Source of the DNA: Myxococcota bacterium
GTDB lineage: Bacteria > Myxococcota_A > UBA9160 > PR03
NCBI GenBank assembly: GCA_035506135.1
Contig: DATJPY010000022.1
Span: 40,110 to 104,109 of the forward strand
Length of the DNA stretch: 64,000 bases
Direction of reading: 5' to 3'
This document shows positions 36,355-53,266 of the stretch, one piece after another. A program made the translations under genes and the position numbers. The notes under the pieces were generated by a model that was given only the letters and a program-made list of their open reading frames with translations, had not been told where the DNA came from and made no database searches. Numbering within the stretch: the first letter of the stretch is position 1; the number at the start of each line of letters is the position of its first letter.

Positions 36355-37371
36355 ATGCGGCGCGACCCCGCGTATCACTCCCTGGCGGTGGCCGACGTCG
36401 CCGACGAGACCGCCGACGCGCGCTCCTTCGTGCTCGAGGTCCCTCCGTCCCTCGAGCAGACGTTCGCCTACGCCGCCGGGCAGTTCTGCACGTTCCGCAC
36501 CGCCATCGGCGGCGAGCCCGTCGCCCGCTGCTACTCGATGTCGAGCTCTCCCGACGCGGGGGACCGCTTCGCCGTCACGGTGAAGCGGGTCCCGGGCGGG
36601 AGGATGTCGAACTGGATGAACGACACGCTCTCGCCGGGCGACACGATCGAGGTGATGCCCCCGACGGGCCGGTTCGTGCTGCGTCCAGCCGAGAGTCCGA
36701 TCGTCGCCTTCGCGGGCGGGAGCGGCATCACCCCGATCCTCTCGATCGTCAAGACTGCGCTCGTCCGCACGCGCCGGGAGGTCTCGCTCGTGTACGCCAA
36801 CCGCGACGCGGAGAGCGTGATCTTCGCGCGCGAGCTCGAGCGCCTGCGCGCGTCGTCGGGTGGACGCCTCTCGGTGCATCATCACCTCGATGCGGGGCGC
36901 GGGTTCCTCGACGCCGCGGCGTGCGCGGCGCTCGTCGCCGGCCGCACGCACGCCGACTTCTACGTGTGCGGTCCCGGCCCGTACATGGAGGTGGTCGGGG
37001 CCGGCCTGGATCGAAGCGGGGTCGCCGCGAGCCAGGTCTTCATCGAGCGGTTCGAGCTGCCCGAGGAGACTCCCGGAGCCACGGCGCCGTCGGAGACGGA
37101 GTCGGTGGTGATCCGACTCGATCGGCGCAAGCACGCGATCAGCTACCAGCCGGGCGACACCCTCCTCGACACGGCGCGTCGCGCGGGCCTCGCGCCGCCG
37201 TTCGCATGCCAGGCGGGAAGCTGCGGCACGTGCATGGCCTTCCTCGAGTCGGGGCGGGTCGCGATGCGCGCCAACAACGCCCTGTCGGACGACGAGGTCG
37301 AGGCGGGGTGGGTGCTCACCTGCCAGGCCGTCCCGACGAGCCGCGAGGTCGTCGTCGACTACGACCGGTGA
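36355..37371 (+). CDS. ferredoxin-NAD(P)H reductase with C-terminal plant-type [2Fe-2S] domain (KshB/PaaE/phthalate-dioxygenase-reductase type), 338 aa
   Basis: RCYSMSS (RxYS flavin motif), GGSGITP NAD motif, CQAGSCGTC..x29..C cluster motif. Confidence 0.85.
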   Translation: MRRDPAYHSLAVADVADETADARSFVLEVPPSLEQTFAYAAGQFCTFRTAIGGEPVARCYSMSSSPDAGDRFAVTVKRVPGGRMSNWMNDTLSPGDTIEVMPPTGRFVLRPAESPIVAFAGGSGITPILSIVKTALVRTRREVSLVYANRDAESVIFARELERLRASSGGRLSVHHHLDAGRGFLDAAACAALVAGRTHADFYVCGPGPYMEVVGAGLDRSGVAASQVFIERFELPEETPGATAPSETESVVIRLDRRKHAISYQPGDTLLDTARRAGLAPPFACQAGSCGTCMAFLESGRVAMRANNALSDDEVEAGWVLTCQAVPTSREVVVDYDR

Positions 37372-38475: not shown

Positions 38476-39153
38476 ATGGCGAGAGCCGACGACTTGCAGC
38501 ACGCAGACGGACCGGGATGGCGCCAACGAGCGGTCTCGAAGAGCCTGAGCGCCGCGCGCTCGCGCGCGGAGCAGCGCGTCCAGCGCTTCCTCGACGCCGC
38601 GTTCCATCTGATCGACGAGCGGGGCACGACCGAGTTCACGATCCAGGAGGTCGTCGAGCGCTCGAAGCAGTCGCTGCGAGGGTTCTATCAGTACTTCGAT
38701 GGCAAGGACGAGCTCCTGTTCGCGCTGCTGGAGGAGAGCAGCCGCGAGGCGTTCGCCGACATCGTCGGCGCGGTCGAATCCGCCTCCGAGCCGCTCGAGC
38801 GACTTCGCGCGTTCACGATCCGCCTCTACGAATGGTGCGAGCCTCTCGGGAAGGGACGGAAGCGCGGAGCCCACAACCGCCTTCCGCTCTCGGAGTTCTC
38901 CCTCCAGATCGCGCTCAAGAATCCCGAGCGCGTGAGTGCGGTGATGGCCCCGATCTCGCGCATGCTGGTCGAGCTGATCGAGGCGGCCGCCGCGGCGGGC
39001 GCGATCCAGGTGAAGGACGCGCAGCGCGCCGCCGTGCTCGTCCAGCAGTCGGTGGTGTACGGCTGGCTCATGAATCGCCTCGTCCAGAGCGCCAGGATGC
39101 GCGTCACGGCCGAGGACGCCTGGGAGTTCTGCCTGCGCGGGCTTCGCGGCTGA
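38476..39153 (+). CDS. TetR-family transcriptional regulator, 225 aa
   Basis: HTH ..FTIQEVVERSKQSLRGFYQYFDGKDELL... Confidence 0.8.
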   Translation: MARADDLQHADGPGWRQRAVSKSLSAARSRAEQRVQRFLDAAFHLIDERGTTEFTIQEVVERSKQSLRGFYQYFDGKDELLFALLEESSREAFADIVGAVESASEPLERLRAFTIRLYEWCEPLGKGRKRGAHNRLPLSEFSLQIALKNPERVSAVMAPISRMLVELIEAAAAAGAIQVKDAQRAAVLVQQSVVYGWLMNRLVQSARMRVTAEDAWEFCLRGLRG

Positions 39154-39219
39154 GCCGGGCCTGGAGATCGCGCGCGGTCGCCTAGGAACGCTCGAGTCCG
39201 CGGCGAGGACGGCATCTCT

Positions 39220-39516
39220 TCATCCGGTCGAGAACGCCGTGCCGACGAAGTAGCAGCCGAGCAGCATCGCGCCCGTGAAGACGAGCCAGAGATCGGTGAG
39301 CCGGCGCAGCCAGCGGGGCGAGTGTCTTACCTCCATGAACTCCCGGAAGATGATGCGCACCTTGACGAGCGCGATCCCGATCGCCATCGAGGTGATCGCG
39401 ACGTCGGGAGTGGGTGCACGCCGACCCTCGAGCGAGACGACCCCGAGCTGGGCGATCGCGATCGCAGAGAGCGCCAGCCAGGCGAGCGTCAGTCTCCTCG
39501 CGGACGTAGAGCTCAC
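39220..39516 (-). CDS. small 3-TM protein, prokaryotic cytochrome oxidase subunit IV family-like (NorF/NirP position), 98 aa
   Basis: GTG at 39516, 3 nt after the upstream stop. ..IALVKVRIIFREFMEV.. resembles the COX4_pro signature helix. Confidence 0.55.
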   Translation of the reverse strand: MSSTSARRLTLAWLALSAIAIAQLGVVSLEGRRAPTPDVAITSMAIGIALVKVRIIFREFMEVRHSPRWLRRLTDLWLVFTGAMLLGCYFVGTAFSTG

Positions 39517-39519
39517 GGC

Positions 39520-40143
39520 TCACCTCATGACGTAGAGCAGTGCGAAGATCAGGACCCAGAGGTAGTCGATCGTGTGCCAGTAGGTGGCGCCGGTCTCGAT
39601 GATCGCCTGGGAGCGCCGCTCGGGGCTCCGGAGCTGGTGGACGACGATGCCCAGCGCGACGAAGCCGATCAGGAGGTGGAGGAAGTGGATGCCGGTCAGG
39701 AAGTAGTAGAAGGAGAAGAACTCGCTGGCGGTGAACCCGAGCCCCTGGTGGATCTCCCTCGACCACTCGAGCACCTTCGAGACGAGAAACACGGAGCCGA
39801 AGAACATCGTCAGGAGTGCGTGGGTGTGCGCAGAAGAGTACGACCGCGCGCGGGCCAACTGGACGCAGCGCGCCGCCGACCAGGAGCTCGCCAGCAGCAC
39901 GACGGTATTGAACACGCCGACGGCCAGGCTGAGCTTCGCCTGCGATCGCAGGAAGAGCTCGGGGCTCCGGGTCCGGCGGATGACGTAGACGGTGAAGTAG
40001 CCGGCGAAGACCATCGATTCGAATAGGACGAAGGCCCACATGTCGGGCTGGCCGGGTACGAACCGGCCGGCCTCGCGCGTCTCTTGAGAGAGGGCTCGGC
40101 CTTCGCCTGCCTGCGGCCGGGCAGCGTCTGCGCTGCTCGTCAT
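39520..40143 (-). CDS. cytochrome c oxidase subunit III-family protein (NorE/NirO-like), 207 aa
   Basis: ATG at 40143 in an ATGA overlap. 5 TM helices. ..FFSFYYFLTGIHFLHLLIG.. and ..YWHTIDYLWVLIFALLYV.. are CoxIII hallmarks. Confidence 0.8.
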   Translation of the reverse strand: MTSSADAARPQAGEGRALSQETREAGRFVPGQPDMWAFVLFESMVFAGYFTVYVIRRTRSPELFLRSQAKLSLAVGVFNTVVLLASSWSAARCVQLARARSYSSAHTHALLTMFFGSVFLVSKVLEWSREIHQGLGFTASEFFSFYYFLTGIHFLHLLIGFVALGIVVHQLRSPERRSQAIIETGATYWHTIDYLWVLIFALLYVMR

Positions 40144-40973
40144 CGCGCCCCTTGCGTCAGGCCGCGTGCGGCCGGGGCTCGATCGGTCTGGAGCTCCGGC
40201 AGCGGCCCGGTGCCGAAGTCCTCCCGGAGGATCAGCTTCCGGATCAGCGTCAGGAAGGCGATCGTGTAGACGACGAACACGACCATGTTGATCCACCACG
40301 CGATCGCGCCGTTCCAGGCGAACGCACCCTCCTTGAAGATCCACGCCGGTGCGACGACGACCTCCGTGAGCGCGTTGCAGAGATTGAGGTAGCCGAACCA
40401 CTTCGGGAAGACGCCGTTCTCGTCGAGCAGGACCGCGGCCATCCAGACCAGGGAGCCGATCAAGAAGACGCCCATGGTCCCTTCGAACGACAGGAACGCG
40501 AAGTCGTAGAGCCAGCAGAGGAGCGCCGGATCGCGGTCGGGGCGCATGGCGCCGACCGTGCACGCGATGCCCATGAGCAACATGCCAGGAAGCGCGGCGA
40601 GCGCGTAGATCACGAGGTACGAGTACGCGAACGCGCGACTCACCGACATGCGCCGCATCGTATAGGCGAGCGTCGCGTTCATGATCGCCGTTGCGCCGCC
40701 CACGATGAACACGATGGCGAACCCATAGATCAGGCCGTGATGCCGATCGGCGAACCACCGCACGATGCCGGAGGGATCCAACGACGGCTGCGGCGGAGGC
40801 TGGGTCCGCGTGATGACGAAGAACAGCAGGCCGTACAGGTTGTAGAAGACGACCAGCGTCCACCAGCCGATCCACAGCTCACGCTTCTCGTCGCAGCGCC
40901 AGTGCCACGCGATCTTGCGAAGCAGCGAGCCCGACGGCGGCTCGGGCAGGGCGCCCGTCGACGGCGCGCTCAC
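40140..40973 (-). CDS. 6-TM membrane protein of unknown family, 277 aa (paralogue of 40970..41686)
   Basis: GTG at 40973 in a GTGA overlap. Its hydrophobic pattern and the blocks ..MRRMS.., ..MRPDRDPALL.., ..AWNGAIAWWINMVVF.. align with the upstream gene. Confidence 0.6.
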   Translation of the reverse strand: MSAPSTGALPEPPSGSLLRKIAWHWRCDEKRELWIGWWTLVVFYNLYGLLFFVITRTQPPPQPSLDPSGIVRWFADRHHGLIYGFAIVFIVGGATAIMNATLAYTMRRMSVSRAFAYSYLVIYALAALPGMLLMGIACTVGAMRPDRDPALLCWLYDFAFLSFEGTMGVFLIGSLVWMAAVLLDENGVFPKWFGYLNLCNALTEVVVAPAWIFKEGAFAWNGAIAWWINMVVFVVYTIAFLTLIRKLILREDFGTGPLPELQTDRAPAARGLTQGAR

Positions 40974-41686
40974 GACGCCACTGCCTCGTCTTCGGCGCGC
41001 TGGCGCCGGATCGCCCGACCGAGGACGACCGCCATGACGACGATCCAGAGGCCGACGGCGAGGTTTCGCACCCAGAACGTCAGCAGGCCGTCCCAGGCAA
41101 TGGGGCCCGTCATGGCTGCACCCGTGAACGCAGCCGGGATCATCAGAGCGGCGACGACGAGATTGAAGTGTGCCACCCAGGGCCGGAAGACCGGCCGCTC
41201 CTGGCGATCGAGATAGATCGCCAGCGAGAGGATCACGCTCTGCGCGATCAGGAATCCGACCTGACTCGAGAAGGTCACCCACGCGAGATCGTTGAACAGG
41301 AGCGTCAGCTGCGGATCCCGCATCGGGCGGAAGGCGGCGAGGAGCCAGAAGAGATCGGCCATGAGGAAGATGGTGGGGCCACCGGCGGCGCACGCGAGGA
41401 GGGCGTACGAGAAGATCGGCGTGCGATGCGCCATCCTGCGGATCTGGAGGACGATCAGCGCGAGGATCGGGATCAGCCCCACCGCGAACCAGTTGAAGAT
41501 GATCATGCTGTAGCGGATGCGCGGGAGGTTCTCCGGGTCGCGATAGAAGGCCGCGACCTCCTCCGCCGACAGGGTCGGCGACATCGGCGGGAGGAAGCCC
41601 GGGAACAGCAGGAAGACGGAGAGCCAGACGGCGGCCAGCGCGGGCAACGTCCAGAGCAGGATCACCTCGCCATCGGCTCGTCTCAT
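40970..41686 (-). CDS. 6-TM membrane protein of unknown family, 238 aa
   Basis: ATG at 41686 after AGGAAGGGGA. Blocks ..IRRMA.., ..FRPMRDPQLT.., ..AWDGLLTFWVRNLAV... Confidence 0.6.
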   Translation of the reverse strand: MRRADGEVILLWTLPALAAVWLSVFLLFPGFLPPMSPTLSAEEVAAFYRDPENLPRIRYSMIIFNWFAVGLIPILALIVLQIRRMAHRTPIFSYALLACAAGGPTIFLMADLFWLLAAFRPMRDPQLTLLFNDLAWVTFSSQVGFLIAQSVILSLAIYLDRQERPVFRPWVAHFNLVVAALMIPAAFTGAAMTGPIAWDGLLTFWVRNLAVGLWIVVMAVVLGRAIRRQRAEDEAVAS

Positions 41687-41736
41687 CGTTCGGATCCCCT
41701 TCCTCACCGGCGGGAGGCGACGACTTGGCTCGTCGC

Positions 41737-42171
41737 TCACGCCTCCTCCGGCGCTGCGAGCGGATCGTGCTGTCGCCCCGAGTCGAAGCCGCCGTGCTTG
41801 CGCAGGAACGTGGTGGCGCGGCGCCGGATGCGCCAGCCGCCGGCCGTGCGCACGTACTCGTCGCGATACCAGGCGAGGCGCATCGCGTGCGTCTGCTGGT
41901 CGATGAACACGAAGTGCTGGATGCCCGTCGCGCGGTCGCCGTCGAACTCGACGACGGGCATGTTGCCGATGAACTGGCCGCGCGGCGCGGCCTCGAGCAG
42001 GGCCGGCATCCGTTCGACCGTGTACGCGGTGCCGAACGCGCTGTACTCCGCGTCCGGCGTGAAGACCTCGAGCCACTTGTCGACGACGAACTGGCTCGCG
42101 TACGCCATGTAGCGCGAGCACAGCTCGTGGATCTCGACCAGGTCGGCCGCGCGCTGCGGATCCCGGCTCAC
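41737..42171 (-). CDS. NTF2-like/SnoaL-like protein, 144 aa
   Basis: GTG at 42171 in a GTGA overlap. ..IHELCSRYMAYASQFVVDKWLEVFTPDAEY.. and ..YRDEYVRTAGGWRIRRR.. are typical SnoaL_4-type start and end. Confidence 0.65.
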   Translation of the reverse strand: MSRDPQRAADLVEIHELCSRYMAYASQFVVDKWLEVFTPDAEYSAFGTAYTVERMPALLEAAPRGQFIGNMPVVEFDGDRATGIQHFVFIDQQTHAMRLAWYRDEYVRTAGGWRIRRRATTFLRKHGGFDSGRQHDPLAAPEEA

Positions 42172-42503
42172 GGGATCGGTTCGAGCTTGAGCTCGAATTG
42201 GGCCGTGCCGGTGTCCGGGATGTAGGGCTGCCTCCAGATCTCGACGGGGAACGACATCAGAATGAGCGAGTACAGGAGCTTGAGCAGCCGCCACGCATCC
42301 TCGGGCAGCGCGTCGAGCGGGAACTGCTCCAGGTAGCGGATGGCAGCCTCCGCGCGCGGCATGAGCGCGTCGTAGAACGCCTGGATCTCGTCCATCGTGC
42401 TGGCGAGGCGCTTGGCGTAGCGCTCGGGCTCGCTGTCGAGGCACCAGTCCGGGACGAAGCGCTCCAGATCCGAGAACTCAGCGGGGAGCAGGCGTTCGGC
42501 CAT
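42168..42503 (-). CDS. conserved 111-aa protein of unknown function, Rieske-oxygenase-associated (paralogue of 50781..51116)
   Basis: Same length and clearly alignable with the protein after the second Rieske gene (LLP(A/S)EF..LE.., WCL..EPER, FYDA..PRAE.AI.Y...FPLDA.P.DA.RLL.LL.SL.L.S..VE.W.QP). Confidence 0.7.
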   Translation of the reverse strand: MAERLLPAEFSDLERFVPDWCLDSEPERYAKRLASTMDEIQAFYDALMPRAEAAIRYLEQFPLDALPEDAWRLLKLLYSLILMSFPVEIWRQPYIPDTGTAQFELKLEPIP

Positions 42504-42506
42504 CGG

Positions 42507-43808
42507 TCACGTCTCCGCTTGCTTTCGCTTGTAGTCGTCGACCCAGTTGTTGACGACGCGGTTCAGGTGTCGGCACATGAACTCCTGGTCGCCGAGCGGG
42601 AAGGTCGAGACGACGCGCGACTCGAGCCCCATCTGCGTCGCCTCGAGCGTGCCGCAGTCCTCGAGGGCGTACTCCTTGATGGTGGCGATGCCCAGCTGCT
42701 GGGCGAGGCGCTCGCGCACGTTGCGCGGCGGCGTGAAGTACGCGTTCGCCTCGAAGAGGAGGCGATTGTGCGCGACGGGCCAGTAGTGATACGTGAGGTA
42801 CCAGCCCGTCTCCCAGAACACGATCGCGAAGTTCGGGAAGATCTGGAACGAATCGAGGCCCCAGTTCTTCTTCTTTCCCGGGTTGAGACCCGGCGGGAGC
42901 TCGTCGCTCACGATCTCGGACGGGTCCCACGGCCCGAAGAGGCCGCTCCGCATCAGTTGCTCGATCGGGTTGTAGAACGAGGGCACCAGCTTGCCGCCCG
43001 CGCCGCCGGTCGTGGAGCCCACCCGATGCGGGCCGTCGATCTGGAAGTGGCTGGTGTAGAAGCCCTTGTCCTGGTAGTCGGCCTGCCGCATCACCGGGTT
43101 CTGGTGGCCGTGGAGAATGGGCGGGTGATAGAACTCCTGGAATGCGTCCAGGAACACCTTCCAGTTGCTGCGGATGTCGCCGCGGTAGTAGTAGCGCTGC
43201 GTCAGCTTCTCGAACGGATACTGGATCGCGGTGATCATCGGGCCGAGGAACTCGGTGAGCGACTGGCTCGGCTCCTTGGCGAGGTTCACGAAGATGAATC
43301 CCTGCCACACCTCGCAGTGTACCGGCACGAGGCCGTAGTCGGCCTTGTCGATGCCGAAGAACTCGCCCTCTTGCAGGATGAACGAGAGGCGACCGTCGAG
43401 CTCGTACGTCCAGCCGTGGTACTTGCAGGCGAACTTCCGGCAGGTCCCGCTGGTCTCCTCGCCGGGGTGGTCGGTCCACACCAGCTTGTTGCCGCGATGG
43501 CGGCAGACGTTGTGGAAGGCGCGGATCCGGTCGTCCGTGCCCCGGACGATGATGAGCGACGTCTTCGCGACCGCGAGCTCCCGGGTGAAGAAGCCGCCCT
43601 TCCGCCGGAGCTGCTCGACCCGCCCGACGTTCAGCCAGGCCCGCTTGAAGATCGCCTCGCGCTCGAGCTCGAAGAACTCGGACGAGATCGAGCTCTCGTA
43701 TGACACCGGCGCGGTGTCGAGCTCCGGATAGTGCTCCGTCCAGCTGCCCTCCGGAGGCTTGGGGTGCTGCCGGGCGGATTGCTTCGGGACCTTCAGGGAC
43801 TCCGTCAT
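42507..43808 (-). CDS. Rieske [2Fe-2S] non-haem-iron oxygenase alpha subunit, 433 aa
   Basis: ATG at 43808 after GAGGAGG. CRHRG..x..CKYHGW Rieske motif. NWKVFLDAFQEFYHPPILH mononuclear-iron motif. Confidence 0.9.
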   Translation of the reverse strand: MTESLKVPKQSARQHPKPPEGSWTEHYPELDTAPVSYESSISSEFFELEREAIFKRAWLNVGRVEQLRRKGGFFTRELAVAKTSLIIVRGTDDRIRAFHNVCRHRGNKLVWTDHPGEETSGTCRKFACKYHGWTYELDGRLSFILQEGEFFGIDKADYGLVPVHCEVWQGFIFVNLAKEPSQSLTEFLGPMITAIQYPFEKLTQRYYYRGDIRSNWKVFLDAFQEFYHPPILHGHQNPVMRQADYQDKGFYTSHFQIDGPHRVGSTTGGAGGKLVPSFYNPIEQLMRSGLFGPWDPSEIVSDELPPGLNPGKKKNWGLDSFQIFPNFAIVFWETGWYLTYHYWPVAHNRLLFEANAYFTPPRNVRERLAQQLGIATIKEYALEDCGTLEATQMGLESRVVSTFPLGDQEFMCRHLNRVVNNWVDDYKRKQAET

Positions 43809-43830
43809 CTCGTCCGCGCCTCCTCGCCGC

Positions 43831-44592
43831 TCACAGCACCATGCCTCCATTGACGCCGACCACCTGGCCGGTGATGAAGCCCGCCTCGTCGGAGCAGAGG
43901 AACCCGCACGTGGCCGCGATGTCTTCGGGCGTTCCGGCCCGGCCAACGGGGATCACGCGGGGGACGACCTTCTCGAGCTTCCCGATGTCGCCGTCGGATT
44001 CGGCGCGGCGTAGCATCGGCGTGTCGATCATGCCGGGCGGAATGGTGTTGACCGTGATCCCGTGCGGAGCGAGCTCCAGCGCGAGCGCCTTGGTGAGCCC
44101 GATCACGCCGGCCTTCGACGCGACGTAGTGCGCCATGCGCGGGGCGCCGGACTGCGCGCTCGACGACGCGATCGTCACGATCCGGCCCCACCGGGCCGCG
44201 ATCATGTCGGGAACCGCGGCCTGCACGCAGTGGAACGTCCCCGTGAGGTTCACCGCGAGGACGCGCTCCCACCGTTCGACCGTGATGTCCGCAAGGGAGT
44301 CGAATGCATCCAGGCCCGCGCTCGTGACCAGGATCCCGATGGGCCCGAGCTCCGCGCGCACCTTGCCGAGCGCGGCGTCGACGGCCGCGCGGTCGGTGAC
44401 GTCGACCTCCGCGGCGATGACGCGGGCTCCCGACTCGCGGAGCCCCTCGGCGGCGCGCGCGGCCGCCTCGCCCTGGAGATCGAGCAGCGCGACGCGGTCG
44501 CCGCGGACCGCGAGATGCCGGGCGATCGCCAGCCCCATGCCCGACGCCGCCCCGGTGACCACGGCGACTCGATCCCTGGCTCCCGTCGTCAC
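43831..44592 (-). CDS. short-chain dehydrogenase/reductase (FabG-like), 253 aa
   Basis: GTG at 44592 with GGAGG 5 nt upstream (the listed ATG at 44643 lies inside the promoter element). VTGAASGMG, YVASK. Confidence 0.85.
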   Translation of the reverse strand: MTTGARDRVAVVTGAASGMGLAIARHLAVRGDRVALLDLQGEAAARAAEGLRESGARVIAAEVDVTDRAAVDAALGKVRAELGPIGILVTSAGLDAFDSLADITVERWERVLAVNLTGTFHCVQAAVPDMIAARWGRIVTIASSSAQSGAPRMAHYVASKAGVIGLTKALALELAPHGITVNTIPPGMIDTPMLRRAESDGDIGKLEKVVPRVIPVGRAGTPEDIAATCGFLCSDEAGFITGQVVGVNGGMVL

Positions 44593-44613
44593 GATCGCCT
44601 CCGTCCCGGAAGC

Positions 44614-44673
44614 CAGTATGGACCGCCCCGGCACCGCTTGCAACCACGCTCTCGCTGGTGGAGAATGCGATTC
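44614..44673. promoter_or_regulatory. copy A of a ~60-bp duplicated promoter/regulatory element
   Basis: CAGTATGGACC-N13-TTGCAA-N17-GAGAATGCGATTC. About 52 of 61 positions match copy B at 49404..49464 by my hand alignment. The self-complementary TTGCAA can act as the -35 for both strands (minus strand: TTGCAA-N17-CATACT). Confidence 0.55.
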
Positions 44674-45671
44674 TACAGCCCCTGCGAGCCCGCGCGCCGG
44701 CTCTCCCTCCGCTGGTTCTCCCTCAGGTAGGGGGAGCTGCGGACGAGGAACCAGGTGATGACCGGTCGCAGCAGGCGGATCAGAGGCACGAGCGCGCCGA
44801 GGTCCTTCCGCATGTCGACCTTCAGATCGGCCAGGCCGCGTTTCTGGTACTGAAGGAGCTTCTGGCTCTCTTCGGTGTCCAGCCAGTCGCCGAAGAAGCG
44901 CCGGACCTCAGTCCGCACGAACGCCTCGGCGGGAAGCGACCCGATCCCCATCGCGCCCATCAGCTCGTTGCAGAACGCGCGGTGGGTCATCTGACACGTC
45001 CCGCCGCCGCCGATGTTCAGGATCTTCCCGATCGCCTCCTCACACGCCACGGCACGCGCGAGGGCCGCCGCCGCGTCCGCGGGATGGATGTACTCGAATC
45101 GGGCGTCGGCGCTGAAGTCGAAGAGGATCTTGGGATCGTACGAGTAGCCGATCAGGCGGATCGGAGGCACCGCGGCCAGCCGCAGGATGCTCCACCGGAG
45201 TCGGGACTGCCGGATCGCCTCCTCGCACGCCACCTTGTGGCGGCCGTACTCGTTGGTCGGGGAGACCGGCGTGTCGACGCGAAGCGGCGGCTCGCGATCC
45301 TGGACCTCGCCGAAGATGCCCATCGACGACGCGAAGACCAGCCGCCGCGCCGTCGGAGAGGCTTCCATCAGCGCGATCAGGTCGCGCGTGGCATCGACGT
45401 TGACGCGCCGCGCGAGCTCGGGCGCCTGCTCCGCATTGACGATGGCCGCCAGATGTACCACCGCGTCCACGCCGTCCAGCGCGGCGCGGACCGAGGCAGG
45501 GTCCGTGACGTTCCCCCACGCGACGCGCACGCGCTCGCCGAGCCGGGCGGCGAGCTTGCGCGCCTTCGGCGACTCGAGGTCGAACGCGACGACGTCGTGA
45601 CCCTCTGCGAGCAGCGCCTCCACCGTGCTCGAGCCGATGTTCCCGAACGCACCGGTCAACAGGACCTTCAC
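44673..45671 (-). CDS. NAD-dependent epimerase/dehydratase-family protein, 332 aa
   Basis: MKVLLTGAFGNIGS Rossmann start, ..YGRHK.. catalytic motif. ATGA overlap with the upstream gene. Confidence 0.8.
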   Translation of the reverse strand: MKVLLTGAFGNIGSSTVEALLAEGHDVVAFDLESPKARKLAARLGERVRVAWGNVTDPASVRAALDGVDAVVHLAAIVNAEQAPELARRVNVDATRDLIALMEASPTARRLVFASSMGIFGEVQDREPPLRVDTPVSPTNEYGRHKVACEEAIRQSRLRWSILRLAAVPPIRLIGYSYDPKILFDFSADARFEYIHPADAAAALARAVACEEAIGKILNIGGGGTCQMTHRAFCNELMGAMGIGSLPAEAFVRTEVRRFFGDWLDTEESQKLLQYQKRGLADLKVDMRKDLGALVPLIRLLRPVITWFLVRSSPYLRENQRRESRRAGSQGL

Positions 45672-47392
45672 GACGCGACGGCCCGCGATCGAGCGCGACG
45701 AGGGTCCCGCAGATTCGGGGCGGAGAGCTCCTGGAGAGCGGCGAGGAAGAGCTCGTCAATTCTCGGACTGAGGTCCGCGAGCGTCGGGGCGTTGGCGTGG
45801 CTGGCGGAGCCGAAGACGCGGTACAGCGCGTCGCTCGGGGTGGAGGCGCCGATCGAGAGGCAGAGGCAGGCGACGCCGTCGGCGCGGAGCTCTTCGAGGG
45901 CCTTGCGGGCGTCGGCCTCGGCGTACCTGGATTCATAGCCGTCGTCGTAGAGGACGCCGTCGGAGAGGACGAGCAGCAGCCGGTTGGGTGTGCCGGCCTC
46001 GGTCTTGAGGATCTCGCCGGCATGGCGGACGCCGGCACCGAGGCGTGTGTACCCGACCGGCTCGAGTCGGTGGAGTCGAGAGAGTCCCCCCGCGCTGAAG
46101 CGCTGGGCGAAGGGCTTGAGGGCGAGGAGGTGGACGGCGGATCGGCCGTGGGAGCGGAAGCCGTAGACGGCGACGCGGTCGCCGAGCTGCTCGAGTGTCA
46201 CCGCCAGCGTCGCGGCGGCCCGTCGCTGGTGCTCGTGTACGGAGAGGCCGTCCGGATCGGTCTCGGTCGCCGAGCCGGAGGCGTCGAGCAGGATGAGGAC
46301 GCCGAGGTTGCGAGCGAGCTTGCGTCGCTCCAGGTAGATGTGCTCGGGAGGGGAGTAGCCGGCGCGCAGGTCGACCGACAGGTCGATGAGGGCCTCGATG
46401 TCGAGGTCGTCGCCATCGGGTCGGCGGCGGAAGACCTTGGGGCCGAGGCCCAGGCGGCTCAAGCGCCTGCGCAGCACCTCGTCGTGCTGAACACCGGCGG
46501 CGCGGACGTCGGGGGCCGAGCTCAGCGGGAAGTCGATGACCCGACACCACTCCGGCCGATACCGATTCCTGTGTATGTCCCACTCCGGATAGAGGGCGCC
46601 GCCCACGCCGACCGCAGCGACCGGCTTGCCGTCCGTCGTGAAGCGGAGAGGCGTGGGGAGCGGGCGAGCGTTCGGCCCCACACGGTCGACGCGCCGAATC
46701 GACCGCGCCGGCATCTCGGCGCCGGCCGGGCCGTCACCCGGAGAGCGGGACATGCCGAGGAGCTTGTACAAGAAGTCCGCGAGAGCCCTCGAGCTGAGCG
46801 GGTTCTCGAACAGCTTGAGGATCCTGCTCTCCTCGCCCTCCCGCTCGTCGCCCTCGTCGTGCGCGTCGGGAACACCGGTCTGCTCGCGCTCGACGCGGCG
46901 ATCGCGATCGCCGGGCTGTGCGCCCGGCCCCACCGCCGGCGCATCCAGCAGCCGGGAGGGGCGGAGGACGCCGAACCACTCCGGCGGATCGGCGACGGCG
47001 CTTCGACCACCGGCCACCGCGAGCGACTCGTCGGCCGTCGACGTGGTCGGCTCACCGATCGGACCGAGCGCCTGCGCCAGCGGCAGCCGGCTGGCGAGCT
47101 CGGCGAGCACCCGGCGACCTTCGAGCGCCAGGTACCGCCGTGCGAGCTTCGGACGTCTCCGCAGCGCCCGGATCCGGCGGTGATCGAGGCTTCCGGCGCC
47201 GAGGAGAGCGCCTTGGACGAGCACCTCCCGGCGTTGCTCCGCGACGGAGCGGCCCGCGGAGACGAACACGAGACGTCCGTCCGTGTAGGCGGCTTCGCCG
47301 GCAGGTGCCTCGACGACGCCGAGGGGTCGACCCGCGAGGAAGGCAGCGAGGAGCCGGAATCGATCGGGGCTCCCCGAGTCCGAGGCCGTCAC
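45668..47392 (-). CDS. NorD/CbbO-like von Willebrand factor A domain protein, 574 aa
   Basis: GTG at 47392 in a GTGA overlap with the ATPase gene. C-terminal VWA domain with MIDAS LILLDASGS. The 757-aa listed ORF is an off-frame extension over the ATPase gene. Confidence 0.8.
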   Translation of the reverse strand: MTASDSGSPDRFRLLAAFLAGRPLGVVEAPAGEAAYTDGRLVFVSAGRSVAEQRREVLVQGALLGAGSLDHRRIRALRRRPKLARRYLALEGRRVLAELASRLPLAQALGPIGEPTTSTADESLAVAGGRSAVADPPEWFGVLRPSRLLDAPAVGPGAQPGDRDRRVEREQTGVPDAHDEGDEREGEESRILKLFENPLSSRALADFLYKLLGMSRSPGDGPAGAEMPARSIRRVDRVGPNARPLPTPLRFTTDGKPVAAVGVGGALYPEWDIHRNRYRPEWCRVIDFPLSSAPDVRAAGVQHDEVLRRRLSRLGLGPKVFRRRPDGDDLDIEALIDLSVDLRAGYSPPEHIYLERRKLARNLGVLILLDASGSATETDPDGLSVHEHQRRAAATLAVTLEQLGDRVAVYGFRSHGRSAVHLLALKPFAQRFSAGGLSRLHRLEPVGYTRLGAGVRHAGEILKTEAGTPNRLLLVLSDGVLYDDGYESRYAEADARKALEELRADGVACLCLSIGASTPSDALYRVFGSASHANAPTLADLSPRIDELFLAALQELSAPNLRDPRRARSRAVAS

Positions 47393-48204
47393 GCTCGGGG
47401 GAGGACCGCGTCGACGAGCTCGCCGAGCGCGCGGACCACGTCGGGGTCGTCCGAGAGCGTCTGGACGACGGCCGACTGGACCGCGCTGCGCAGGCCGAGC
47501 CCTTCCGCGACGAGCCCGCCGGCCAGGATCAGCAGCCGCGTCGAAGCCACCTCTTGAAGCGGCGTACCCTGCAGCTTTCGGATGGCGTTGCCGACCCTGA
47601 CCAGGGCTCGCGCGGTCTCGACCTCGACGCCCGCCTCGTGGGCGACCACCTCGGTCTCGACGTCGGCGGGTTGGAAGTCGAGCTCGATGGCCACGAAGCG
47701 CTGACGGGTCGACTCCTTGATGTTCTTGAGGACGCTCTGGTAGCCGGGGTTGTAGGAGATCACGAGCTGGAACCCGGGCGCTGCCTTCAGCGTGATGCCG
47801 AGCCGGTCGACCGGAAGCTCGCGGCGATGGTCGGCGAGGGGATGGATCACCACGGTGGTGTCCTGGCGGGCCTCGACGATCTCGTCCAGATAACAGATGG
47901 CGCCCTCGCGCACCGCTCGAGTCAGGGGTCCATCGACCCACGTCGTCTCTCCACCCGTGAGCAGGTACCGCCCGACCAGATCCGCCGAGGTCAGGTCCTC
48001 GTGACCCGCGACGGTGATCAGGCTCCGACCCAGCTCATGGGCCATCGCCTCCACGAAGCGAGTCTTCCCGCACCCCGTCGGGCCCTTCAGCAAGACGGGC
48101 AGACCGCGGCGAGCCGCCGCGCGAAACACCTCGACCTCGTTCGCCACGGCCCGGTAGAACGGCGCCTCCGCCGCAGGACGAATGGGCCTTTGTGCAGTGG
48201 CCAA
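47389..48204 (-). CDS. CbbQ/NorQ/NirQ-type MoxR AAA+ ATPase, 271 aa
   Basis: TTG start 3 nt after the upstream stop. Walker A GPTGCGKT, Walker B ICYLDEI, typical ~270-aa length. Confidence 0.9.
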   Translation of the reverse strand: MATAQRPIRPAAEAPFYRAVANEVEVFRAAARRGLPVLLKGPTGCGKTRFVEAMAHELGRSLITVAGHEDLTSADLVGRYLLTGGETTWVDGPLTRAVREGAICYLDEIVEARQDTTVVIHPLADHRRELPVDRLGITLKAAPGFQLVISYNPGYQSVLKNIKESTRQRFVAIELDFQPADVETEVVAHEAGVEVETARALVRVGNAIRKLQGTPLQEVASTRLLILAGGLVAEGLGLRSAVQSAVVQTLSDDPDVVRALGELVDAVLPRA

Positions 48205-48207
48205 CGG

Positions 48208-49371
48208 TCAGTTCGCTCGGTCGAAGGGAACGATCTTCGGGAGCTCCGTCCCTTCGGGAAGGACCACGGTGCCATCCGGGCCGATGTAGGCGGAGGTCGT
48301 GCCCCGATCGATGGGGAGGGAGGGATGGGGGCAGAGTCGCCCCGTGCCCTCACCACAGATGCCCATGGTGAAGTACGAGCGCTTCTGGATGTCCTCCGGC
48401 CAGGGGCCCGCGTGCATCGCCAGCCACTGGGCCGGAATGTTGTAGAACACGAAGAAGAACATGCTGACCGCCCCGAAGATGGCCAGGAAGCGCATCGACT
48501 GCAGCTTCGCGAAGCCCCCGTGGACGCGTTCCAAGCCGCGCTCGACGAAGGTCCGCCCTCGATCGTCCGTGAAGTAGCGCAGAGAGCAGAACCCGGCCTG
48601 GACGCCACCCCACAATATTCCTTCGTAGACCGGGTACTGATAGTAGGTGCCGGGAAAGAGTGAGAGCGACCGGATCGCTCCGGGGTAGGTGAAGAGGCCC
48701 ATCGGCATCAAGAAGAGCCCCTCGATCACGATGTCGAAGAAGAAGGTGAAGACCACCAGGACGCCGAGCAATCCGAGGACACCGATGTCCGGCCAGCGCG
48801 CTTTGGCACGCCGCATGACCCAGCATCCGAGCATCGTGCAGATGAGGACGCCCCATGCGTAGCCTGGGGCGTTCATCAGGAGCGGCTCCGCCATCATCCG
48901 ACCGGGCTTGCCCCACGAGACCCAGCCCGGCACGTCCAACACCCACGAGCCCCGGTTCCACATCCAGGTGTTGTAGGTGGACCAGGTGTTGAAGTAGTTC
49001 AGCAGCGGGTCCTGGAAGAACACCAGTCCAAACGCGCCGATCAGCATGCCGTCGGTCGTGATGCGCCGCTCCCGACGCCACGGCCGGATGATGAAGTAGT
49101 AGATGGCGACGGGGAACCCGAGCATAATGACGCTCGTCCAGGTGACGAGGGCGATCTTCATCCAGGTCGGCGGATCGCTCGGTCCGGGAGGTACCCGCAC
49201 GAAGTTCGGACCGGTGATCCACCGGGCCCAGACGTAGAGCTGCACGGCGAGGATCGCGCCTCCGGCGAGGGCCCACGCCTGGACGGGCTGGACCGAGGAC
49301 TGTGCCTGGGCGGCCCACGACTCGGTCCGGACCTCCAGGACCGCGGCCTTTCCGCTCGATACCGACTGCAT
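48208..49371 (-). CDS. polytopic membrane protein, AveC (spirocyclase)-family-like, 387 aa
   Basis: ATG at 49371 after GGGAGG. About 8 TM helices. ..FFQDPLLNYF.. block shared with 14932..16041. Family name from memory (low certainty). Confidence 0.6.
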   Translation of the reverse strand: MQSVSSGKAAVLEVRTESWAAQAQSSVQPVQAWALAGGAILAVQLYVWARWITGPNFVRVPPGPSDPPTWMKIALVTWTSVIMLGFPVAIYYFIIRPWRRERRITTDGMLIGAFGLVFFQDPLLNYFNTWSTYNTWMWNRGSWVLDVPGWVSWGKPGRMMAEPLLMNAPGYAWGVLICTMLGCWVMRRAKARWPDIGVLGLLGVLVVFTFFFDIVIEGLFLMPMGLFTYPGAIRSLSLFPGTYYQYPVYEGILWGGVQAGFCSLRYFTDDRGRTFVERGLERVHGGFAKLQSMRFLAIFGAVSMFFFVFYNIPAQWLAMHAGPWPEDIQKRSYFTMGICGEGTGRLCPHPSLPIDRGTTSAYIGPDGTVVLPEGTELPKIVPFDRAN

Positions 49372-49403
49372 CGCCAGTCCTCCCTCGCGGGTTCACCGGC
49401 AAT

Positions 49404-49464
49404 CAGTATGGACCAGGCCCGGGACCACTTGCAAGCTCACTCTCGCTAATGGAGAATGCGATTC
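49404..49464. promoter_or_regulatory. copy B of the duplicated promoter/regulatory element (divergent promoters)
   Basis: CAGTATGGACC-N14-TTGCAA-N17-GAGAATGCGATTC. Plus strand TTGCAA-N17-GAGAAT faces the Rieske gene at 49507. Minus strand TTGCAA-N18-CATACT faces the AveC-like gene at 49371. It is followed by hairpin CCCTCGC-aggac-GCGAGGG (49466-49484). Confidence 0.55.
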
Positions 49465-49506
49465 CCCCTCGCAGGACGCGAGGGTTGAGAGGCAGAGGGC
49501 TCGCCC

Positions 49507-50784
49507 GTGGGTCGCTTCCAGAGGCCGCCGGAGGGGACCTGGACCGAGCACCATCCGGAGCTCGGCACGGGGCTCGTCTCGTTCGAGGACTCGATCTCCC
49601 CCGCCTTCTACGAGCTCGAGCGCGAGGCGATCTTCAAGCGCGCCTGGCTCAACATCGGCCGGATCGAGCAGCTTCCCCGGAACGGCAGCTACTTCACCAA
49701 GGATCTCACCGGGCTCCGGACCTCCATCCTCGTGTCGCGCGACCTCGAGGGACGCGTGCGAGCCTTCCACAACGTGTGCAGACACCGCGGGAATCGGCTG
49801 CTGTGGGAGGGCACGCCTCGCGGCGAGTCCTCAGGCAACGCGCGGCAGTTCGTCTGCAAGTATCACGGCTGGCGCTACGGCCTCGACGGCGCGTGCACCT
49901 ACGTGCATCAGGCGGGCGAGTTCTTCGACCTGCGCAAGGAGGAGCTCCGCCTGGCACCGCTGCACTGCGACACCTGGGCGGGCTTCGTCTTCGTGAACCT
50001 CGCCCGCGAGCCCCGGCAGACGCTGCGGGAGTACCTGGGGCCGATGGTCGGGGCGCTGGAGGGCTATCCCTTCGAGAAGATGACCGAGCGCTACTCGTTC
50101 CGCGCGGAGAACAACAGCAACTGGAAGGTGTTCAGCGACGCGTTCCAGGAGTACTACCACGTCCCGCCACTCCACACGCATCAGCTCGGCCCCACACAAG
50201 AGGCACAGAACCCCGAATACGAGTTCGAGGCCGCGCACTACCAGATCGATGGGCCGCACCGCATGGTGACCACGAGCGGCACCCACAAGCACACCTGGCC
50301 GGCGAAGCACCTCTATCCCACCGAGGCGCTGACGCGCAGCGGCAGCACCGGACCCTGGGACGCGCCGTTCCTCGGAGCGACACTTCCTGGCGTCAACCCC
50401 TCTCGGATCTCGCGCTGGGGCATCGACAACTTCCAGGTCTTCCCGAACCTCGAGATCCTGATCTACGAGCGCGGCTGGTACGTCACCTATCGGTACTGGC
50501 CCACGTCCCACAACACGCACGTGTACGAGGCCGATCTCCACTTCGTGCCCGCCCGGAGCCCGAGGGAGCGCCTGGCGCACGAGTACGCCGCGATCACGTT
50601 CAAGGAGTACGGCCTGCAGGACTGCGGCACACTCGACGGCACGCAGATGGGCCTCGAGCAGGGGGCGTTCCGCGAGTTCCCGCTGAACGACCAGGAGATC
50701 CTGGTGCGCCACTTCCACAAGACGGTGGGCGACTGGGTCGACGCCGCCCGCGCCCGCGAGCGGGCGGAGGGTCCGCCCCGGTGA
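49507..50784 (+). CDS. Rieske [2Fe-2S] non-haem-iron oxygenase alpha subunit, 425 aa
   Basis: GTG start after GAGGG. CRHRG..x..CKYHGW. NWKVFSDAFQEYYHVPPLH. Closely alignable with 42507..43808. Confidence 0.9.
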   Translation: MGRFQRPPEGTWTEHHPELGTGLVSFEDSISPAFYELEREAIFKRAWLNIGRIEQLPRNGSYFTKDLTGLRTSILVSRDLEGRVRAFHNVCRHRGNRLLWEGTPRGESSGNARQFVCKYHGWRYGLDGACTYVHQAGEFFDLRKEELRLAPLHCDTWAGFVFVNLAREPRQTLREYLGPMVGALEGYPFEKMTERYSFRAENNSNWKVFSDAFQEYYHVPPLHTHQLGPTQEAQNPEYEFEAAHYQIDGPHRMVTTSGTHKHTWPAKHLYPTEALTRSGSTGPWDAPFLGATLPGVNPSRISRWGIDNFQVFPNLEILIYERGWYVTYRYWPTSHNTHVYEADLHFVPARSPRERLAHEYAAITFKEYGLQDCGTLDGTQMGLEQGAFREFPLNDQEILVRHFHKTVGDWVDAARARERAEGPPR

Positions 50785-51116
50785 GCCACAAGCTGCTTCC
50801 GTCGGAGTTCGCCGAGCTCGAGCCGTGGGCCGCCACGTGGTGTCTGCGGACGGAGCCCGAGCGCTGGTCGCAGCGCCTCGCGAGCTCCATGAAGGAGCTG
50901 CGGGCGTTCTACGACGCCTTCTTTCCCCGGGCCGAGCAGGCGATCGCGTATTGCGACCGCTTCCCGCTCGACGCGATGCCCGCGGACGCCGAGCGTCTGC
51001 TGCAGCTCCTGCACTCGCTGCTCCTGGTGTCGTATGCGGTCGAGGTCTGGAAGCAGCCCGAGGTGATCCACTCCGGGTCCGCGCGCATCGATCGCGTCCT
51101 GGAGCCCCGTCCCTGA
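50781..51116 (+). CDS. conserved 111-aa protein of unknown function, Rieske-oxygenase-associated
   Basis: GTG at 50781 in a GTGA overlap with the Rieske stop. Paralogue of 42168..42503. Only the last 111 codons of the 604-aa listed ORF are credible. Confidence 0.7.
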   Translation: MSHKLLPSEFAELEPWAATWCLRTEPERWSQRLASSMKELRAFYDAFFPRAEQAIAYCDRFPLDAMPADAERLLQLLHSLLLVSYAVEVWKQPEVIHSGSARIDRVLEPRP

Positions 51117-51142
51117 CGTCGTCGCCGCCAAGGAGGCCGAGC

Positions 51143-51976
51143 ATGCCCCGCCTGACCCGGTTCGAGGAGTACCGCGACCGGTACCCGGACTTCGCCCTCG
51201 AGAAGACGAACGACGGCATCCTGCTGATGAGGATGCACCGCGACGGCGGTCCCGCGGTCTGGGACGAGCGGACCCATCACGACACGGCCAACCTCTTCAA
51301 CGACGTCGCGGGCGATCGCGACGTCCGGGTCGTGATCTACACGGGGACCGGGAACAACTTCAACGCCAACTGGGGGCAGGAGGGCAAGCGGCCCTCGTTC
51401 AAGGCTCCGGCCGAATGGGCGGAGGAGATGGGATGGTACGGAAGGCACCGGCACCTCAACATGCTGGAGATCGACGCCATCATGATCGCGGCGGTGAACG
51501 GCCCCTCGAACATCCACTCCGAGCTGGCCCTGATGTGCGACATCGTCCTCGCGGCGGACGACGCGTACTTCCAGGACCTGGCGCACTTCCCGCGCAATCT
51601 CTCTCCGGGCGACGGGATCCAGAACATCTGGCCGCTGGTGCTCGGGCGAAATCGCTTCCGCTACGCGCAGCTCATGGGCCAGAAGATCACGGCGCAGATG
51701 GCGCACGACTGGGGCGCGGTGAACGAGGTGCTGCCGAAGGCTGCGCTCCTGGATCGGGCCTGGGAGATCGCGCGGTATCTCCTCCGCTTCTCGCCGATCG
51801 TCCTGCGCCATACGCGCCGCACCTTCGTCCAGGAGTTCAAGCGAGCCGCCGTCAACGACCTGGGCTACGGGCAGACGATGGAGATCCTGGGCATGACGCA
51901 GTTCACCCCCTACGGCGGAGGCATGCGGCCGCTCGACCGCGCCTGGGACGATCCCGATCTGTGGAAGAAGGGATGA
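51143..51976 (+). CDS. enoyl-CoA hydratase/isomerase-family (crotonase-fold) protein, 277 aa
   Basis: ATG at 51143 after AGGAGG. ..VVIYTGTGNNFNANWG.. and ..IAAVNGPSNIHSE.. crotonase-fold blocks. The oxyanion motif is atypical. Confidence 0.7.
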   Translation: MPRLTRFEEYRDRYPDFALEKTNDGILLMRMHRDGGPAVWDERTHHDTANLFNDVAGDRDVRVVIYTGTGNNFNANWGQEGKRPSFKAPAEWAEEMGWYGRHRHLNMLEIDAIMIAAVNGPSNIHSELALMCDIVLAADDAYFQDLAHFPRNLSPGDGIQNIWPLVLGRNRFRYAQLMGQKITAQMAHDWGAVNEVLPKAALLDRAWEIARYLLRFSPIVLRHTRRTFVQEFKRAAVNDLGYGQTMEILGMTQFTPYGGGMRPLDRAWDDPDLWKKG

Positions 51977-51983
51977 GATCCGA

Positions 51984-52823: not shown

Positions 52824-53266
52824 GGAGCGTGGAGCCCATCGAGGTCGCCGCCCGCGAGAGCATCCGCGACCTCGTCGCGCGCTACAACGCGACCGGCGAC
52901 TCGGGCCGCTTCGATGCGATGCTCGCGCTCTTCGCCGAGGATGCGACGCTCGAGGTCGAAGGAGAGAGGCTCCACGGCCGGCCCGCCATCCGCGCCTTCT
53001 TCGAGCGCGTGGCGGAGCGGACCGGCGCGGGGCGCGCCGCCGCCTTCGTCCGGCACTTCACCGCCACCCACCAGATCGACGTGCTCTCCGAGCGGGAGGC
53101 GCGCGGCCGCTGCTACTACGCCGTCCTCACCGAGCGCGGGCTCGACCACTGGGGCCTGTACCTCGACGAGTACCGCCGGCTCGACGGCCGCTGGCTCTTC
53201 CAGCGCCGCAAGATCACGATGGACGCCGCGATGCCTGGCGGCTGGGGCGACGCGCAGCGCCGCTGA
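52820..53266 (+). CDS. NTF2-like/SnoaL-like protein, 148 aa
   Basis: GTG at 52820 in a GTGA overlap. ..IRDLVARYNATGDSGRFDAMLALFAEDATL.. and ..YLDEYRRLDGRWLFQRR... Confidence 0.65.
   Translation: MRSVEPIEVAARESIRDLVARYNATGDSGRFDAMLALFAEDATLEVEGERLHGRPAIRAFFERVAERTGAGRAAAFVRHFTATHQIDVLSEREARGRCYYAVLTERGLDHWGLYLDEYRRLDGRWLFQRRKITMDAAMPGGWGDAQRR

Follow-up and report, generated by a model that had tools for sequence, protein, structure and literature searches.

The four-gene cassette

The window analysed here is a 64-kb stretch of DNA from a Myxococcota bacterium (contig DATJPY010000022.1; all coordinates are window positions), and it carries a cassette of four minus-strand genes encoding membrane proteins. 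The first, M1 (40970-41686, 238 aa), has six transmembrane (TM) helices and belongs to an uncharacterised family, here called M. The second, M2 (40140-40973, 277 aa), is a paralogue of M1; it repeats the 6-TM layout and adds an N-terminal helix and a disordered C-terminal tail. They are followed by a COX3-like (NorE-like) protein of the 5-TM subunit III (COX3) family (39520-40143, 207 aa) and by a COX4-like (NorF-like) protein, a small membrane protein of the COX4_pro family (39220-39516, 98 aa). An earlier reading of the sequence, in the following called the original prediction, had described four consecutive membrane-protein genes of these sizes and with these overlaps, and both open reading frames (ORFs) and junctions were confirmed. 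M1 and M2 are joined by a GTGA overlap, M2 and the COX3-like gene by an ATGA overlap, and a gap of 3 nt separates the COX3-like stop from the COX4-like start.

The cassette makes up the last four of a series of twelve closely spaced genes on this strand, which encode in this order an AveC_like protein, a CbbQ/NorQ-type AAA+ protein, a VWA-domain protein, an NAD-epimerase-like protein, a short-chain dehydrogenase/reductase (SDR), a Rieske oxygenase alpha subunit, a 111-aa ORF product, a SnoaL_4 protein, M1, M2, the COX3-like and the COX4-like protein. No promoter-like site came out of a scan of positions 38900-49700, and terminator-like sites were as frequent as in a shuffled control; at the G+C content of the window (approximately 70%) the scan is uninformative on transcript structure.

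NorE/NorF homology and the search for catalytic subunits

Both small subunits exceed the cut-offs of the Pfam families that the original prediction had suggested for them, CoxIII in the case of the 207-aa protein (COX3, 38.5 bits, cut-off 23.8) and prokaryotic oxidase subunit IV in the case of the 98-aa protein (COX4_pro, 45.8 bits, cut-off 28.9). The COX3-like protein retains the TG-H--H and YWH-D motifs and aligns end to end with PDB chains of the 5-TM form of subunit III (<=70 bits); the 98-aa protein has no sequence match in the PDB. The references for NorE, NorF, NorQ, NorD, NorB and NorC come from a plasmid-borne norCBQDEF cluster of Roseibium aggregatum, which surfaced when plasmid sequences were searched by tblastn for the COX3-like protein. 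The full-length alignment of the 207-aa protein with this NorE shows 34% identity (E 8e-39, 119 bits), a better match than to any solved oxidase subunit III. Between the 98-aa protein and NorF the identity is 26% (E 5e-5), and both carry a K-x-R-I-I motif. The E-then-F gene order is likewise the same, and across the related loci NorE matches outscore CyoC matches (tblastn). The assignment to the NorE/NorF type made in the original prediction is thus well supported, and the two proteins are best read as true homologues of NorE and NorF.

Among oxidase systems, CyoC/CyoD, QoxC/QoxD and the actinobacterial CtaE/CtaF share the Pfam families and the end-to-end 5-TM subunit III match with the cassette. 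However, the 207-aa protein scores far below the NCBIfam equivalog cut-offs (CtaE_Actin 89 vs 190, CyoC 73 vs 224, QoxC 61 vs 240), and subunits I and II are unlinked. NorE/NorF and NirO/NirP are accessory membrane proteins of denitrification clusters (norCBQDEF, nirQOP), whereas the cassette lacks norC and norB, has the M family as its constant neighbour and is found where hydrophobic compounds are taken up and degraded by aerobic or CoA-dependent routes.

Concerning the presence of catalytic subunits, the window and approximately 105 related loci, fetched with 7-10 kb on each side, were searched by tblastn with CyoA, CyoB and CyoD of a Rhizobium cyo operon and with NorB and NorC of Roseibium. 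CyoA, CyoB, NorB and NorC gave zero matches in the 64-kb window or the related loci, and CyoD gave none on any locus. The locus consequently carries no NorC/NorB or haem-copper subunit I detectable with these queries, as the original prediction had stated, and no linked norB- or ctaD-type gene lies within the fetched DNA. It is this lack of linkage to catalytic subunits that sets the cassette apart from the NorEF and oxidase III/IV systems.

A Skermanella plasmid carries a NorE-type COX3 plus COX4 pair, its COX3 being 54% identical to NorE, and no M-like gene is annotated in the 12.5-kb stretch around it. The pair therefore looks like a portable scaffold for different partners.

Distribution and gene order

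Database searches returned 2039 relatives of M1, of which the top 120 are 83-99% identical; M2 gave the same pattern, and all M relatives are annotated as hypothetical. In a profile search of a library clustered at 50%, the M family comprised 1518 representative clusters. A genome scan with one genome per species found close M1 relatives at 466 loci at least, the best 80 of which were kept; here M1 is 64-88% identical. Loci with 76-88% identity belong to Myxococcota-like metagenome-assembled genomes (MAGs), and those with 64-73% identity to Mycobacterium (many species), Nocardia, Rugosimonospora, Nevskiales (Solimonas, Hydrocarboniphaga, Sinimarinibacterium), Salinisphaerales, Halieaceae and one alphaproteobacterium. 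In essentially all of these 80 best loci, from at least four phyla, the gene order is M1-M2-COX3-COX4, and every mapped locus has exactly two M copies. Such recurrence means that the arrangement is not due to chance. M1 is the best-conserved protein of the cassette, with 64-88% identity across phyla as compared to 45-60% for the COX3- and COX4-like proteins.

The pairing extends to far more distant relatives. COX3 and COX4_pro genes lie beside M in seven of seven metagenome contexts, at 32-59% identity and including versions with a single M gene (such as L086; L numbers denote individual loci) and the permuted order COX3-COX4-M (L096). On plasmids the pairing was found in 10 of 11 contexts at 24-34% identity, and the single exception adjoins an insertion sequence (IS) element. 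The ten contexts with the pairing are those of Mycobacterium branderi, Rhodococcus (two), Pseudonocardia, Streptomyces, Novosphingobium, Sphingobium (two), Diaphorobacter and Azoarcus. In the metagenome and plasmid contexts M is frequently present as one copy.

Linkage that is kept down to 24% identity, through changes in gene order and across phyla, points to a functional and probably physical unit. The cassette is a self-contained and horizontally mobile module in which one or two M proteins, a NorE-like protein and a NorF-like protein are constant. Independent of haem-copper oxidases and nitric oxide (NO) reductases, it does not include NorQ and NorD either. The original prediction had suggested that the 6-TM pair may stand where the catalytic core of such a system would lie, possibly as a new membrane redox module. 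The co-occurrence with the CoxIII/CoxIV-like genes, conserved across phyla to 24% identity, makes the 6-TM proteins the natural partners of the E/F-like pair; the proposed redox core finds no counterpart in a ligand set or a subunit I fold, as detailed below.

NorQ-, NorD- and AveC-like genes

Upstream of the cassette on the same strand lie the genes for an AveC_like protein (48208-49371; Pfam AveC_like, 2e-84), for the CbbQ/NorQ-type AAA+ protein (47389-48204; Pfam AAA_5 and CbbQ_C, 60% identity to NorQ) and for the VWA protein (45668-47401; Pfam VWA_2, 31% identity to NorD), the latter two at a distance of 4.0-6.5 kb. The original prediction had correctly noticed NorQ- and NorD-like genes here. 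Its notion of a full Q-D-E-F accessory set does not hold across lineages: among approximately 85 mapped loci, AveC, NorQ and NorD adjoin the cassette in the window and otherwise in L001/L006 alone, which represent one other lineage, and neither NorQ nor NorD occurs in the plasmid or metagenome contexts examined. Unlike in norCBQDEF, where NorQ and NorD are linked, they are usually absent next to the M cassette, so that their presence in the window amounts to a lineage-specific juxtaposition.

A block of AveC, Q, D and epimerase genes, with an identical AveC protein, is found on four soil-metagenome contigs (L091-L094), and also in L001 (5330-9024). In norB-norQ-norD and cbbLS-cbbQ-cbbO the client is encoded just upstream of the Q/D genes. 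As the order AveC_like-Q-D mirrors these arrangements and the block recurs on soil contigs, the AveC-like protein is the more probable client; by this analogy NorQ and NorD of the window more probably serve this membrane protein than the module. A second AveC_like gene (14932-16041, minus strand; Pfam 1e-61), 26% identical to the first, is without NorQ and NorD and is flanked by an SDR gene (14058-14942) and a gene for a Peripla_BP_6 binding protein (16045-17160).

Fold and conserved residues of the M proteins

M1 and M2 are 25% identical over 225 residues (BLASTP, E 5e-15) and align with a profile-profile probability of 99.3% (hhalign), which agrees with the paralogy assumed in the original prediction; the blocks RRM, RP-RDP and AW-G..W are invariant in both. 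Neither could be assigned there to a nameable family, and our Pfam and NCBIfam scans with the two proteins were equally empty. Among 94 diverse representatives of the M family, none matched NCBIfam and seven weakly matched Pfam DUF4386 (best E 1e-7), which M1 and M2 themselves do not match at E 0.1 or better. In UniRef some Mycobacterium orthologues of M1 are labelled 'DUF998 domain-containing'. DUF4386 (DUF998 is the label of orthologues in some databases) comprises uncharacterised multi-pass membrane proteins that resemble M in size and helix count; as neither DUF has an assigned function, the likeness is uninformative.

In AlphaFold2 models built from diverse alignments, M1 consists of six long TM helices besides a short one (pLDDT 94.3, pTM 0.89), and M2 has the same layout (pLDDT 86.2), extended by the N-terminal helix and the disordered tail; the short helix sits in the first external loop of both. 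Foldseek searches against the PDB found no relative of either model (best E 0.27 for M1, 0.59 for M2). Neither a solved oxidase subunit, transporter or membrane enzyme nor, in particular, the subunit I/NorB fold resembles them, and matches to rhodopsin and G-protein-coupled receptor folds are noise (TM-score <=0.38). MFS, MlaE/YrbE and other transporter families likewise show no similarity to M1 or M2 in Pfam, NCBIfam or PDB folds, so that a well-characterised transporter family, which would have spoken against the original prediction, was not encountered.

Several further relationships were rejected. A remote common origin of M and COX3 or COX4 has an hhalign probability of <=1.6%. An identity of M1/M2 as copper membrane monooxygenases (CuMMO, PmoC/AmoC-like) was dropped for lack of a Pfam match and of a conserved Asp/His/His site. 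Six database entries (P0391, P0396, P0407, P0243, P0270 and P0272) look like M1-M2 or M2-COX3 fusions; they are frameshifted read-throughs with out-of-frame stretches in place of TM5-TM6, which makes them unfit as Rosetta-stone evidence. P0391 (493 aa), P0396, P0407, P0243 and P0270, considered as natural M1-M2 fusions on which to model the heterodimer, contain garbage segments and are of no use for it. The fusions of M with DUF1214 (P0302) and of an alcohol dehydrogenase with M (P0377, possibly an artefact) are uninformative in this respect.

Near-invariant throughout the family (M1 numbering) are P33, P34, P37, R84, R120, D133, D160, P168, R169, W170, G194, P195, W198 and G200. Mapped on the model, these residues fall into an outer-face group (the PP..P loop, R120, D133 and GP..W.G) and an inner-face group (R84, D160 and P-R-W), an assignment that depends on the N-in topology deduced from charge distribution. 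No His, Cys, Met or Glu ligand is conserved between M1 and M2 or family-wide. Close orthologues of M1 additionally keep H87, C99, M35, M61 and M85, and those of M2 keep C199 and E204; H87, C99 and the three Met are lost in the wider family, which retains the COX3/COX4 pairing. As no set of His, Cys, Met or Glu residues is kept in the family, a haem, copper or iron redox centre is not indicated.

These residues bear on the view that M1 and M2 form the catalytic core of a membrane-integral enzyme. Such an enzyme would act on a membrane-dissolved hydrophobic substrate, as an isomerase, cyclase, hydratase or lyase with Asp/Arg chemistry or in a metal-dependent manner, and the E/F-like pair would stabilise it. 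The conserved N132-D133 and D160 could be catalytic, and the additional His, Cys, Met and Glu residues of the close M1 and M2 orthologues also speak for this view, but in the wider family the His, Cys and Met ligands are missing while the COX3/COX4 partners stay, and the conserved residues lie at both membrane faces, not in one pocket. COX3/COX4-type proteins elsewhere accompany catalytic membrane subunits and the module is always found among catabolic enzymes; no known membrane enzyme family or fold, however, is similar to M. The superior conservation of M1 (64-88% vs 45-60%) would suit an enzyme as well, but soluble neighbours are equally conserved (ACADb, 65-69% to Mycobacterium), and this may reflect recent transfer of the island and not a special constraint. 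We regard an enzymatic core as rather unlikely. Its redox version, a metal-dependent module matured by NorQ and NorD that builds on the possible redox module of the original prediction, appears very improbable: NorQ of the window lineage is 60% identical to the true metal-insertion NorQ, yet NorQ/NorD adjoin the cassette in this and one other lineage only.

Regulators, catabolic genes and importers around the module

Convergent with the cassette lies a TetR-family gene (38476-39153, plus strand), which is likely the regulator in this lineage and not part of the module. In L003-L005 and L007 its orthologue (76% identity, Pfam TetR_N) immediately precedes M1 and has the same orientation; in other lineages an unrelated TetR, an AraC or an IclR regulator adjoins the cassette. 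The catabolic neighbours across loci comprise P450s, SDR pairs, TauD, Baeyer-Villiger monooxygenase (BVMO)-like and Rieske oxygenases, alpha/beta hydrolases, amidohydrolases, acyl-CoA dehydrogenases (ACADs), CoA ligases and thiolase/DUF35 pairs or thiolase/ChsH2 genes; a START-domain protein occurs in one context. The module hence lies, under a TetR, AraC or IclR regulator of its own, in inducible catabolic islands for hydrophobic, CoA-activated substrates.

Respiration offers a different explanation, in which the E/F-like proteins, with M as adaptor, would dock as accessory or alternative subunits on a haem-copper oxidase or NO reductase encoded elsewhere in the host and modulate its stability, proton supply or access of O2 and NO while hydrophobic substrates are oxidised. 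NorEF is thought to modulate NorCB in just these respects. The homology to NorE and NorF speaks for such a role, as do the Skermanella pair without an annotated M-like gene and the finding that all contexts are from oxygen- or nitrate-respiring bacteria; moreover, a 2026 structural paper on NorQD (PMC13036017) still calls NorE and NorF proteins of unknown function. On the other hand, no gene for subunit I/II or NorB/NorC is ever linked, the invariably linked partner being M and no respiratory subunit, and the adjacent regulators are of catabolic and not of respiratory type. Movement between phyla on catabolic plasmids and islands favours a self-sufficient unit. An accessory function of this kind is quite unlikely in our view.

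Envelope importers recur next to the module in independent arrangements. In seven Nevskiales/Salinisphaerales loci the gene that immediately precedes the cassette on its strand encodes a TonB-dependent receptor, and the gap can be as short as 1-3 nt; on Novosphingobium pLA3 and in L097 such a gene lies downstream of the cassette. FadL/TodX genes are divergent from the cassette in L087/L088. In Mycobacterium an Mce operon lies approximately 3.5 kb upstream of the cassette, and an Mce cluster is present in 39 loci; in Rhodococcus the cassette directly follows an Mce operon (pRB98) or directly precedes yrbE-mce genes (pRZP2). L008 has an MFS gene directly upstream. Matches of the TonB-dependent receptors to copper, haem and siderophore types are all far below family cut-offs and give no support for metal import.

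The diversity of chemistries next to the module, namely acetone-carboxylase-like (L086), 2-hydroxyacyl-CoA dehydratase plus CoA ligase (Azoarcus) and steroid-like, is hard to fit to one substrate-specific function. It would be in line with a membrane-protection or tolerance device, induced together with catabolic genes against membrane-active substrates, which handles lipids or controls ion leak and does not act on the substrate. Subunit III folds bind lipid, as known from aa3 oxidase structures, and this would suit such a device. The tight operon coupling to specific importers (TonB-dependent receptors, Mce) suggests instead a role in the substrate path, and no stress regulator is adjacent; we therefore hold the tolerance device to be very unlikely.

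Three contexts deserve separate mention. In the region 1922-12466 of L086, a metagenome contig, the single-M module lies between acetone-carboxylase-like genes (Acetone_carb_G, Hydantoinase A/B) and genes for a cytochrome b (Ni_hydr_CYTB), a molybdopterin formate-dehydrogenase-like protein and a FocA-like channel, a context unlike the lipid-catabolic ones. L110, a plasmid of Streptomyces sp. NBC_00080, carries at 1047-8711 a complete mycofactocin cluster mftA-G directly upstream of genes for a hydroxylase and a flavin reductase and of an M gene that stands alone, and on Novosphingobium pLA3 (L100) a gene annotated mftR (13653-14306) lies near the module. The mycofactocin genes near M may be a coincidence or the hint of a redox link.

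A possible role in the uptake of hydrophobic substrates

Gene neighbourhood and residue pattern lead us to favour, tentatively and with a probability of roughly 40%, an inner-membrane complex that acts at the membrane step of uptake or hand-over of hydrophobic substrates. M1 and M2 would form its core, a heterodimer with 12 TM helices, replaced by a homodimer in single-M versions. The NorE/NorF-like pair would flank this core in the way in which subunits III and IV flank subunit I, as a stabilising, lipid-binding scaffold. Acting at the cytoplasmic-membrane step of substrate acquisition, the complex would take over its substrate from the envelope importers, be they TonB-dependent receptor, FadL/TodX or Mce, and move or release it from the bilayer to cytoplasmic CoA ligases, P450s and other oxygenases. 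The conserved Arg/Asp pairs of M near both membrane faces may serve as gates or proton-coupling sites.

Known permeases offer a partial parallel. Like the YrbE/MlaE permeases of Mce systems and the permeases of TonB-dependent-receptor loci, M1 and M2 are two paralogous membrane proteins of approximately 250 aa with genes beside Mce operons or TonB-dependent-receptor genes, sometimes in one transcription unit with them. In contrast to them, M shows no sequence or fold similarity to YrbE/MlaE, MFS or ABC permeases, the module encodes no ATPase, and the Rhodococcus Mce loci already have YrbE-type permeases of their own.

Several points weigh against a role in substrate uptake. About half of the independent contexts, the window among them, showed no importer gene in the DNA inspected (the others are L086, L089, L095, M. 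branderi, Diaphorobacter, S. herbicidovorans, Pseudonocardia and Azoarcus), and the Solimonas locus L037 contains an MFS gene. Neither a transporter family nor a transporter fold is detectable in M1 and M2 with Pfam, NCBIfam or Foldseek against the PDB, and an internal 3+3 or inverted repeat is undetectable in M by sequence. To our knowledge, COX3- and COX4-type proteins occur only in redox enzyme complexes and never in transporters. The high conservation of M1 would fit a catalytic subunit as well. Finally, the four proteins are predicted to form a complex from gene linkage, and the function assigned to the module is likewise a prediction.

The uptake model can be drawn further. NorE/NorF-type proteins would then not be oxidase or NO reductase accessories as such, but a portable two-protein membrane scaffold for different cores, which here clamps a hitherto unrecognised 12-TM core of new fold. 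The resulting machine, of a new inner-membrane class, would supply the step at the cytoplasmic membrane that is missing from the picture of how sterol- or terpenoid-like substrates are taken up with Mce, FadL and TonB-dependent systems. In this full form we consider the proposal unlikely.

The catabolic island of the window

Between the cassette and the NorD-like gene lie, all on the minus strand and as context outside the conserved module, genes for a SnoaL_4 protein (41737-42171), the 111-aa ORF (42168-42503), a Rieske oxygenase alpha subunit (42507 to about 43850), an SDR (43831-44643) and an NAD-epimerase-like protein (44673-45671); apart from the 111-aa ORF, which has no Pfam or NCBIfam match, they were assigned with Pfam. 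Orthologues of the Rieske/Ring_hydroxyl_A, adh_short and Epimerase genes are present in L001/L003. In Mycobacterium, Nevskiales and plasmid contexts the genes of 41737-45671 are absent beside the cassette. The original prediction had suggested that the Rieske oxygenase operon feeds the membrane module, an idea which loses its ground in that Rieske neighbours occur in some lineages only and that the Rieske genes of the window have a reductase of their own, encoded at 36355-37371 by a 69% orthologue of an L001 gene with FAD_binding_6, NAD_binding_1 and Fer2 domains.

The regions 8150-38419 and 49507-53266, by their gene content, look like a steroid- or terpenoid-like catabolic island. They contain three P450s, the second AveC_like gene, an aldehyde dehydrogenase, SDRs, two Amidohydro_2 genes, ACAD pairs, two CoA ligases, a thiolase/ChsH2 fusion, a luciferase-like gene and the FAD/NAD/2Fe-2S reductase. 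The island is syntenic with contigs of Myxococcota-like MAGs, with proteins that are 70-90% identical, and one of its ACADs is 65-69% identical to a neighbour of the Mycobacterium cassette. Together, this synteny and the Mycobacterium-like ACAD suggest transfer between phyla at the level of the island.

Two similar-looking 111-aa ORFs (42168-42503, minus strand, and 50781-51116, plus strand) are each located directly 3' of a Rieske alpha gene, and both are kept at 75-81% identity beside orthologous Rieske genes in Myxococcota-like loci. Their products may be an unrecognised small partner of Rieske oxygenases, and the SnoaL_4 proteins (41737-42171 and 52820-53266) may serve as beta-like subunits. 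Just past the island, two genes of the ATP-synthase alpha/beta family (Pfam ATP-synt_ab) are found on the plus strand (55229-59045).

Implications

In the literature library that was searched, no relevant paper came up for the module, for AveC-like proteins in the present sense, for DUF4386, norEF or the NCBI product names, or for COX3 in connection with steroid clusters. New here is a NorE/NorF-type pair with a strictly linked partner family of unmatched fold, and it is possible that the module is a categorically new membrane machine. In hundreds of genomes the closest NorE/NorF-like relatives have a different and strictly conserved partner, which provides an independent system for the role of E and F as scaffold. 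If the portable-scaffold proposal is true, the module would be the first experimentally tractable handle on the function of NorE and NorF. For annotation, the labels 'Cytochrome c oxidase subunit 3' and 'IV' in such clusters are no evidence for a terminal oxidase.

The module is present in many non-tuberculous mycobacteria, on catabolic plasmids of Rhodococcus and sphingomonads and in degraders from soil and sea. For the degradation of steroids and hydrocarbons it is still to be explained how hydrophobic substrates that Mce, FadL or TonB-dependent systems have imported get out of the cytoplasmic membrane. Due to its repeated position beside such importers, the module is a concrete candidate for this post-import membrane step.

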